Below, one piece after another: positions 47,239 through 50,200 of a stretch of 55,493 bases of DNA. Position numbers and translations under genes: made by a program. The stretch's first letter is position 1. Every line of letters begins with the position of its first letter. The notes under the pieces are model-generated. The model searched no databases. It had not been told where the DNA came from and was given only the letters and a program-made list of their open reading frames with translations. Source of the DNA: a virus (taxonomy: Duplodnaviria; Heunggongvirae; Uroviricota; Caudoviricetes); the IMG/VR virus record IMGVR_UViG_2663763400_000006. One strand, 5' to 3'.

Positions 47239-50200
47239 ATGGGTAAAGGCAGCAGTAAGGGGCATACCCCGCGCGAAGCGAAGGACAACCTGAAGTCCAC
47301 GCAGCTGCTGAGTGTGATCGATGCCATCAGCGAAGGGCCGGTTGAAGGTCCGGTGGATGGATTAAAAAGCGTGCTGCTGAACAGTACGCCGGTGCTGGAC
47401 AGTGAGGGGAATACCAATATATCCGGCGTCACGGTGGTGTTCCGGGCCGGTGAGCAGGAGCAGACTCCGCCGGAGGGATTTGAATCCTCCGGTTCCGAGA
47501 CGGTGCTGGGTACGGAAGTGAAATATGACACGCCGATCACCCGCACCATCACGTCGGCAAACATCGACCGTCTGCGCTTTACCTTCGGTGTGCAGGCACT
47601 GGTGGAAACCACCTCAAAGGGGGACAGGAATCCATCGGAAGTCCGCCTGCTGGTTCAGATACAACGTAACGGTGGCTGGGTGACGGAAAAAGACATCACC
47701 ATTAAGGGTAAAACCACCTCGCAGTATCTGGCCTCAGTGGTGGTGGATAACCTGCCGCCGCGCCCGTTTAATATCCGGATGCGCAGGATGACGCCGGACA
47801 GCACCACAGACCAGCTGCAGAACAAAACGCTCTGGTCGTCATACACCGAAATCATCGATGTGAAACAGTGCTACCCGAACACGGCACTGGTCGGCGTGCA
47901 GGTGGACTCGGAGCAGTTCGGCAGCCAGCAGGTGAGCCGTAATTATCATCTGCGCGGGCGTATTCTGCAGGTGCCGTCGAACTATAACCCGCAGACGCGG
48001 CAATACAGCGGTATCTGGGACGGGACGTTTAAACCGGCATACAGCAACAACATGGCCTGGTGTCTGTGGGATATGCTGACCCATCCGCGCTACGGCATGG
48101 GGAAGCGTCTCGGTGCGGCGGATGTGGACAAATGGGCGCTGTATGTCATCGGCCAGAATTGCGACCAGTCGGTGCCGGATGGCTTTGGTGGCACGGAGCC
48201 GCGCATCACCTGTAATGCCTGGCTGACCACGCAGCGCAAGGCGTGGGATGTGCTCAGTGATTTCTGCTCGGCGATGCGCTGTATGCCGGTATGGAACGGG
48301 CAGACGCTGACGTTCGTGCAGGACCGGCCATCGGATAAGGTGTGGACCTATAACCGCAGTAATGTGGTGATGCCGGATGATGGCGCGCCGTTCCGCTACA
48401 GCTTCAGCGCCCTGAAGGACCGTCATAATGCCGTTGAGGTGAACTGGATTGACCCGAATAACGGCTGGGAGACGGCGACAGAGCTTGTGGAGGACACGCA
48501 GGCCATTGCCCGTTACGGTCGTAACGTCACGAAGATGGATGCCTTTGGCTGTACCAGCCGGGGGCAGGCACACCGCGCCGGGCTGTGGCTGATTAAAACA
48601 GAACTGCTGGAAACGCAGACCGTGGATTTCAGCGTCGGCGCAGAAGGGCTTCGCCATGTACCGGGTGATGTTATTGAAATCTGCGATGATGACTATGCGG
48701 GGATCAGCATTGGCGGGCGCGTGCTGGCGGTGAACAGCCAGACCCGGACGCTGACGCTCGACCGTGAAATCACGCTGCCATCCTCCGGTACCACGCTGAT
48801 AAGCCTGGTTGACGGGCAGGGGAGTCCGGTCAGCGTGGAGGTTCAGTCCGTCACCGACGGCGTGAAGGTGAAAGTGAGTCGGGTTCCTGACGGCGTTGCC
48901 GGATACAGCGTGTGGGGGCTGAAGCTGCCGACGCTGCGCCAGCGCCTGTTCCGCTGTGTGAGTATCCGTGAGAACGATGACGGCACGTATGCCATCACTG
49001 CCGTGCAGCATGTACCGGAAAAAGAAGCCATCGTGGATAACGGGGCGCACTTTGACGGCGACCAGAGCGGCACGGTGAATGGTGTCACGCCGCCAGCGGT
49101 GCAGCACCTGACCGCCGAAGTCACCGCAGACAGCGGGGAATACCAGGTGCTGGCGCGCTGGGATACGCCGAAGGTGGTGAAGGGCGTGAGCTTTATGCTT
49201 CGCCTGACCGTGGCAGCGGATGACGGCAGTGAGCGGCTGGTCAGCACGGCCCGGACGACGGAAACCACATACCGCTTCAGGCAGCTGGCTCTGGGAAATT
49301 ACAGTCTGACAGTCCGGGCGGTAAATGCGTGGGGGCAGCAGGGCGATCCGGCGTCGGTATCGTTCCGGATTGCCGCACCGGCAGCGCCATCGCGGATTGA
49401 GCTGACGCCGGGCTATTTTCAGATAACCGCCACGCCGCATCTTGCGGTTTATGATCCGACGGTACAGTTTGAGTTCTGGTTCTCGGAAAATCGGATTGCG
49501 GATATCAGGCAGGTTGAAACCAGCGCGCGTTATCTTGGCACGGCGCTGTACTGGATAGCCGCCAGTATCAATATCAAACCGGGCCATGATTATTATTTTT
49601 ACGTTCGCAGTGTGAACACCGTCGGCAAATCGACATTCGTGGAGGCTGTCGGTCGGGCGAGCGATGATGCGGAAGGTTACCTGGATTTTTTCAAAGGAGA
49701 AATCGGGAAAACACATCTCGGCAAGGAGCTGCTGGACGCAGATTGATAACGGTCAGCTTGCGCCGGACCTGGCTGAAATCAGGACGTCCATTACGAATGT
49801 CAGCAATGAAATCACGCAGACCGTCAATAAAAAACTGGAAGACCAGAGTGCGGCAATCCAGCAGATACAGAAAGTTCAGGTTGATACAAATAATAACCTG
49901 AACAGCATGTGGGCTGTCAAAATTGAGCAGACCAAAGACGGACGCCTTTATATTGCGGGTATCGGAGCCGGTATTGAGAATACGCCAGCAGGTATGCAGA
50001 GTCAGGTGCTTCTGGCCGCTAACCGTATCGCATTTATTGACCCGGCAAACGGGAATGAAACGCCGATGTTTGTGGCGCAGGGCAATCAGATATTCATGAA
50101 CGAAGTGTTCCTGAAATATCTGACGGCTCCCACCATTACCAGCGGCGGTAATCCTCCGGCATTTTCCCTGACACCGGACGGGCGGCTGACGGCGAAAAAT

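Follow-up and report, generated by a model that had tools for sequence, protein, structure and literature searches.

The tail-tip gene J in the prophage sequence considered here is interrupted by a stop codon while a different frame stays open across it, which raises the question of whether such a J is expressed by recoding or as two proteins, is an error of the assembled record, or is a gene broken by mutation, and in the last case by which route it was broken. By the window we mean the whole 55,493-nucleotide stretch of the caudoviral record IMGVR_UViG_2663763400_000006. Our answer, obtained by comparing sequences, is that J in the window is probably a recently made pseudogene, produced when a patchy exchange between two J alleles left a seam one base out of register.

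According to the ORF list and translations, the 5' frame of J ends in ...GKELLDAD followed by TGA (49744–49746), exact to the base where the original prediction had put it, with a TAA directly after. The second frame (+1), which had been said to stay open across this stop and to continue into central J, was found open from 49616, after a TGA at 49613–49615, to 50719; it overlaps the first by 128 nt and from 49733 reads central and C-terminal J. Pfam assigned FNIII-A_GpJ, Phage-tail_3, Ig_J and Ig_J_second to the 5' ORF, and Phage_Tail_Tip and Ig_GpJ_C to the 3' ORF, so the domain set of lambda gpJ/TipJ is complete, with every score far over the cut-off, yet it is divided between two frames. 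The position of the gene is typical of a tail module, with M, L, K and I upstream and lom and stf downstream (gene calls and sister-prophage annotation).

Instead of a single uninterrupted ORF of about 1130–1160 codons, J has a total span of 3481 nt, which equals 1 modulo 3, and since it also contains the internal stop, we class it as a pseudogene. A correction of 1 or 2 bp had been considered necessary to read J through, and one nucleotide suffices: removal of C49732 gives a single ORF of 1159 aa, which in 50-aa windows is 80–100% identical to intact J proteins of equal length. The frameshift point corresponds to lambda J residues ~826–832, where the alpha-helical shaft begins in the lambda J structure paper (shaft and fibre domain names are taken from PMC11101478). 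With the break at the beginning of the shaft, the 835-aa product would lack everything from the shaft onward, including central straight fibre and receptor-binding domain, and loss of J function through this truncation is to be expected. The coordinates are collected in Table 1.

Table 1. Positions of the parts of gene J in the window and of the allele blocks around the frameshift.
Feature	Position	Strand	Description
J 5' frame	47239–49746	+	835 aa; hub domains and two FNIII/Ig domains; premature TGA at 49744–49746
J 3' part, +1 frame	49733–50719	+	alpha-helical shaft, central straight fibre and receptor-binding domain; mechanical ORF starts at ATG 49664
Extra base C	49732	+	GAGCTG[C]TGGACG; base of the parental allele, outside any homopolymer; deletion restores the frame
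Receptor-binding domain (Ig_GpJ_C)	50240–50716	+	43% identical to lambda, 59% to A8 gpJ (PDB 9wca), 97–99% to J of PPompW and long-tailed Stx phages
Parent block	up to 49633	+	2 informative sites (49623, 49633)
Donor patch 1	49698–49713	+	10 informative sites, all equal to the 1159-aa J allele
Parental (lambda-like) patch	49714–49736	+	4 informative sites at 49719–49732, including C49732; flanked by common CATCT (49714–49718) and TGGA (49733–49736)
Donor patch 2	49737–49905	+	128 columns, including the 84-nt (28-codon) longer shaft; not in frame with the upstream part
Parental patch 2	49906–49941	+	9 informative sites, 49915–49936
Donor patch 3	49942–50014	+	32 informative sites
Parent block	50017 onward	+	at least 22 informative sites
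Seam-diagnostic strings near the frameshift			CATCTCGGCAAGGAGCTGCTGGACGCAGATTG, GCATGTGGGCTGTCAAAATTGAGCAGACCAAAGACGGACGCC

Alignment with related J genes, which had been proposed as a check, showed that J is intact in the sister prophages of E. coli AST216 (WP_001567092.1) and FDAARGOS_1268 (WP_113248491.1), where it measures 3396 nt and encodes 1131 aa. J in the window has 100% nucleotide identity to both over 47239–49697, bar the SNP at 48357, and from 50015 to the end, bar the SNP at 50700; the only other difference is the block 49698–50014. The tail region as a whole is 99.5% identical to that of the AST216 and FDAARGOS_1268 prophage, and the first 22 kb of the window match several E. coli chromosomes at 100%. 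The AST216 prophage adjoins tRNA-Arg and intD, i.e., it occupies the DLP12 site. The sister prophages share with the window the insertion site, the flanking I, lom and stf genes and the receptor-binding domain; they differ by having one J ORF with a short, lambda-length shaft, whereas the window has donor patches, 85 additional nucleotides and the premature stop. The exact proteins of both J ORFs were found by exact-protein look-up in one record only, the draft assembly GCA_001030665.1 (scaffold KQ087992.1), where they are annotated as KLY01533.1 'phage tail component' and KLY01534.1 'hypothetical protein SK87_02089'; the window and this locus are 100% identical throughout the 14.3 kb compared (window 41239–55493).

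The deviating block was resolved by a three-way comparison over 49560–50200 of the window, the parent allele (AST216/FDAARGOS_1268) and the J of FDAARGOS_1059 (WP_000515779.1), which represents the donor type, a common 1159-aa class of gpJ to which the J proteins of VT1-Sakai, PPompW and vB_EcoS-640R1 also belong. No site in this interval is private to the window: each column is either of parent or of donor type, and the types alternate in seven blocks. Two parental alleles thus explain all sites, in contiguous blocks and with flanks equal to AST216, which is the picture of a gene-conversion mosaic. FDAARGOS_1059 and the window have 100% nucleotide identity in all three donor patches, the 28 additional shaft codons among them; the 1159-aa class differs by reading HLAQELWTQ in frame, while in the window the parental HLGKELL codons are fused out of register. 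At the six switches the sequence common to both alleles measures 64, 5, 4, 9, 5 and 2 nt, and within the block donor and parental segments are only about 50–60% identical, with an 84-nt indel between them. Over 49670–49789, alleles with an equally good match (96.7%) occur in other records, with 1,219 records in the 95–99% band.

The origin of the extra base can be read from the seam at the end of the lambda-like patch. The parent has CAT CTC GGC AAG GAG CTG CTG GAA AAA (HLGKELLEK), the donor CAT CTG GCC CAG GAG CTG TGG ACG CAG (HLAQELWTQ), and the window CAT CTC GGC AAG GAG CTG CTG GAC GCA GAT TGA. In the window the parental GAGCTGCTGGA is joined to the donor TGGACGCAG through the TGGA overlap (49733–49736), one base out of register, so that the sequence is parental up to ...CTGCTGGA and of donor type from TGGACGCAG on. 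In the parental frame this TGGA falls on codon positions 2-3-1-2, in the donor frame on 1-2-3-1. Around the frameshift the window differs from the donor type by C49719, G49721, A49723 and the additional C49732, and all four are parental/lambda bases.

In its DNA the parent exceeds the donor by one base at the seam and then falls short of it by 85 nt downstream; since the extra base and the shortfall cancel, both alleles are in frame. Because the seam at TGGA is one base out of register, these compensating indels became uncoupled, and J gained 85 nt and a +1 frameshift, which is in accordance with the length sum (3481 = 3396 + 84 + 1).

How such a product could have arisen can be outlined as follows. 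The recipient would have been an intact 1131-aa J, the allele still carried by AST216 and FDAARGOS_1268. Over about 320 nt it may have traded sequence with a diverged allele from the 1159-aa class, in which the alpha-helical shaft is 28 residues longer. This donor most likely resided on another lambdoid prophage in the same cell; J-like sequences are found at a median of two places per E. coli genome, and tail-region matches at 3–5 places in the genomes of the relatives. The order of the product would be donor, parent, donor, parent, donor, and the mosaic would have kept the parental C49732 while taking the longer downstream segment of the donor, with 85 additional nucleotides and the frameshift as the result. 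Candidate routes are patchy repair of a heteroduplex formed by Red-beta or RecA, or template switching at microhomologies. The prophage itself encodes exo, bet and gam, and experiments have demonstrated that Red-beta drives exchange between diverged lambdoid sequences, DLP12 among them (De Paepe et al. 2014, PMC3945230). Those Red-beta/RecA mosaics resemble our case in being homeologous exchanges in E. coli, but they were selected as viable phages, while the product in the window is out of frame and very patchy, with seams of 2–9 nt. Six switches in 320 nt are unusually patchy for one event and count against an origin by a single exchange.

Elsewhere in the tail genes, in the region of the major-tail and G chaperone genes (40931–41834), we observed 33 substitutions and no indels relative to AST216/FDAARGOS_1268 in about 900 nt, where the surrounding DNA differs from the relatives at about one site per 1–2 kb. 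The stretch is a second recombination tract, which has remained in frame and which, like the exo, bet and gam genes, speaks for a real exchange in J.

Whether the mosaic is a real molecule has to be weighed against an artefact of assembly or polishing, in which a strain with two intact J paralogues would have yielded a draft consensus mixed over 49698–50014. The junction comes from a single source, the scaffold-level draft GCA_001030665.1. It was absent from 5,426 complete E. coli genomes and the INPHARED phages (searched by BLAST) and from IMG/VR, GTDB representatives and JGI metagenomes (searched with exact or gapped patterns), and no independent Logan or ENA contig with either J ORF was found. 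The lack of private sites would also be expected from a consensus of mixed reads, two or more copies of J are common in E. coli genomes, and another short-read assembly, the source of protein P0008, probably breaks its contig exactly at ...ELWTQI, so that this boundary would be a branch point of the assembly graph. Still, the overlaps of 2–9 nt at five of the six switches are too short for path switching in a k-mer or de Bruijn graph. The alleles are so different in the block (identity and indel as given above) that reads from one are not expected to pile up on the other copy, and ancestry changes in clean blocks rather than by per-base mixing. There are no Ns nearby, and the remaining window is free of indel noise: 28.9 kb compared with AST216 show a single further indel. 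On this balance we regard an artefact as unlikely, though it is a reading to be taken seriously.

A much simpler event, one spontaneous or sequencing insertion of a nucleotide in a mosaic allele that was already in frame, would have in its favour that frameshifts in prophage genes are most often caused by insertion of a single base; the added base is, however, exactly the parental one, lies outside any homopolymer and stands within 14 nt of three further parental-specific bases. Since all four differences within these 14 nt are parental, an unrelated random insertion is ruled out, and the candidate of a homopolymer sequencing error was rejected as well, the C standing between G and T as a member of the four-site parental patch. 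The in-frame counterpart that this explanation presupposes (...GGCAAGGAGCTG-TGGACG...) was sought explicitly and found nowhere in E. coli genomes, the phage collection, GTDB representatives, IMG/VR or JGI metagenomes, and no allele joining the type-2 upstream part to the lambda patch was found in the same genome, phage and metagenome collections. Such an insertion is therefore very improbable.

As for P0008 itself (MGT4087739.1), it is a donor-type J fragment of exactly 835 aa from another E. coli assembly, which ends in ...HLAQELWTQI and is labelled 'partial'. This fragment probably ends at the end of a contig, and its end coincides with the point where the J alleles diverge, which suggests that short-read assemblies tend to break there and do not fuse the alleles. 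P0008 and P0017, both members of the same-length cluster, were considered as independent copies of the junction and rejected, as both are ordinary donor-type J fragments.

A functional arrangement would take one of two forms: recoding, by a +1 ribosomal or transcriptional slip within 49616–49743, or a separately translated fibre and receptor-binding piece in the manner of T5, the tail of which has separate pb3, pb4 and pb5 proteins. The overlap of the two frames is compatible with recoding, and when read directly it contains a T6 run (49685–49690), the motif AAGGAG twice and, at 49742, an ATT that overlaps the TGA. These T6 and AAGGAG elements are, however, ordinary coding sequence in the intact alleles, and reading 49616–49743 by eye gave no recognised slippery motif with a stimulator, and no established +1 shift motif. 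No ATG, GTG or TTG start is present near the stop in the right frame. The G/GT tail assembly chaperone, with its –1 frameshift, offers a comparison by having overlapping frames in the lambda tail gene cluster, but G/GT is conserved across relatives and has a slippery heptamer, whereas the shift in J is +1, private to one assembly and without such a signal. The two-frame layout of J is not conserved: where relatives have an otherwise identical J, it is a single ORF, and neither the 5,426 E. coli genomes nor the phage collection gave a match of at least 99% to the arrangement. Finally, the portal and capsid genes of the prophage are also not intact, so that selection for a working J is doubtful.

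The statement that no programmed frameshift is known in J is hence borne out by the uninterrupted J of the otherwise identical relatives and by the occurrence of the arrangement in none of the 5,426 complete E. coli genomes; with intact sister alleles and no slippery signal seen, a programmed frameshift was rejected. We consider functional recoding or a two-piece J extremely unlikely. Hardly credible, too, is a split J that is still in use, in which the 835-aa hub-plus-FNIII protein would work together with a separate or frameshift-rescued fibre and receptor-binding piece, and could supply tails to a satellite. If it were true, it would make a lambda-type tail tip in two parts, comparable to T5 pb3 with pb4/pb5, and such tails could serve the capsid-forming satellite inside the capsid gene of the prophage.

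The pseudogene reading leaves the question of the C-terminus, of which the last ~250 aa had been described as different from the LamB-binding domain of lambda and as implying another receptor. Over the whole 250 aa the identity to lambda J (NP_040600.1; PDB 8iyk, 8xcj) is 59%, and the description holds for the receptor-binding domain, the last ~159 aa, which is only 43–44% identical to lambda J residues ~975–1132 and thus outside lambda-type similarity; it does not hold for the first ~95 residues, which belong to the central fibre and are ~90% identical to lambda. In domain order, and in 90–100% identity across the first ~800 aa, J in the window follows lambda gpJ, whose receptor-binding domain is a LamB binder.

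The same domain is present in the sister prophages with intact J, and it is 97–99% identical to that of J in PPompW, many long-tailed Stx1a/Stx2a phages, JLK-2012 and phage 2G7b. The non-lambda C-terminus is a common E. coli prophage type, not one special to the window. The closest solved domain is the engineered OmpC-binding chimera A8 gpJ (PDB 9wca), with 59% identity in the domain; the use of OmpC by A8 is described in bioRxiv 10.1101/2022.09.30.509847. J of phage 434 is 42.6% and the phi330 type ~42% identical to the domain, and both are OmpC users. Since identities of 42–59% to OmpC-binding domains are too distant, receptor specificity cannot be transferred, and the literature gave no assignment of the receptor: the studies of the OmpC users phi330, 434 and A8, and those of the LamB user lambda, deal with other types of receptor-binding domain. 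A receptor other than LamB is plausible as a reasonable guess.

J is one of three virion genes that are hit in this prophage, which fits relaxed selection on a prophage no longer able to make a head of its own. The capsid gene, of lambda-E type, is split, with residues 1–82 at 27011–27256 and residues 80–341 at 38136–38921, by a 10.9-kb satellite-like insert (27257–38135) with a duplicated core of ~10 nt, AGCCGAAGCA, which was noticed only once the capsid fragments were aligned; no att repeats of at least 14 nt flank the satellite. The portal gene (23712–25313) has a private nonsense codon, W157*, in which TGG became TGA at 24180–24182 (G24182A relative to AST216). The remaining genes annotated in AST216 that were checked are intact, and the other tail genes are of normal length.

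Capsid-forming PICIs steal only tails, and the satellite resembles them by its gene content: a tyrosine integrase, a primase, SSB, an HTH protein, a head-decoration protein, a small terminase and a lambda-E-like capsid protein of its own, 42.5% identical to lambda E. AST216 is annotated with the same arrangement of a satellite in the capsid gene. The left half of the satellite in the window (28875–33708) gave no long BLAST match to that of AST216, and 33709–37278 is only 94% identical, so it seems to carry a cargo or replication module unlike that of the near-identical sister prophage. The cf-PICI preprint describes six attB sites, among which we did not find the capsid-gene site named.

Overall, the observation behind the original prediction is confirmed and its interpretation partly supported; the recombination-seam origin of the extra base, the common type of the C-terminus, the split capsid gene and the portal nonsense codon go beyond it. 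For annotation, J should be given as a pseudogene of a defective prophage and not as two proteins, as in the source record, and the frameshift should not be corrected automatically as a sequencing error without a check of the reads. We regard J in the window as an ordinary prophage pseudogene, the origin of which can be read from its sequence, and which brings no new mechanism and no receptor information. It is a small, clean example of a misfired exchange between diverged tail-fibre alleles, by the same process that reshuffles the host-range modules of lambdoid phages: alleles that are in frame as proteins may differ by compensating indels in the DNA, and a seam placed between those indels destroys the gene.

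Two observations concern other parts of the window. The single further indel that separates the first 28.9 kb of the window from AST216 lies at 6312, in an ORF on the minus strand (5537–6400), where AST216 has an extra G; this is a DUF7946 gene, annotated as frameshifted in AST216 and intact in the window (287 aa). At 15848–18240, also on the minus strand, two ORFs, one for a hypothetical protein of 404 aa and one for a 'nucleoid-associated protein' of 391 aa, form a convergently oriented pair in a moron-like position between the Q antiterminator and the holin.
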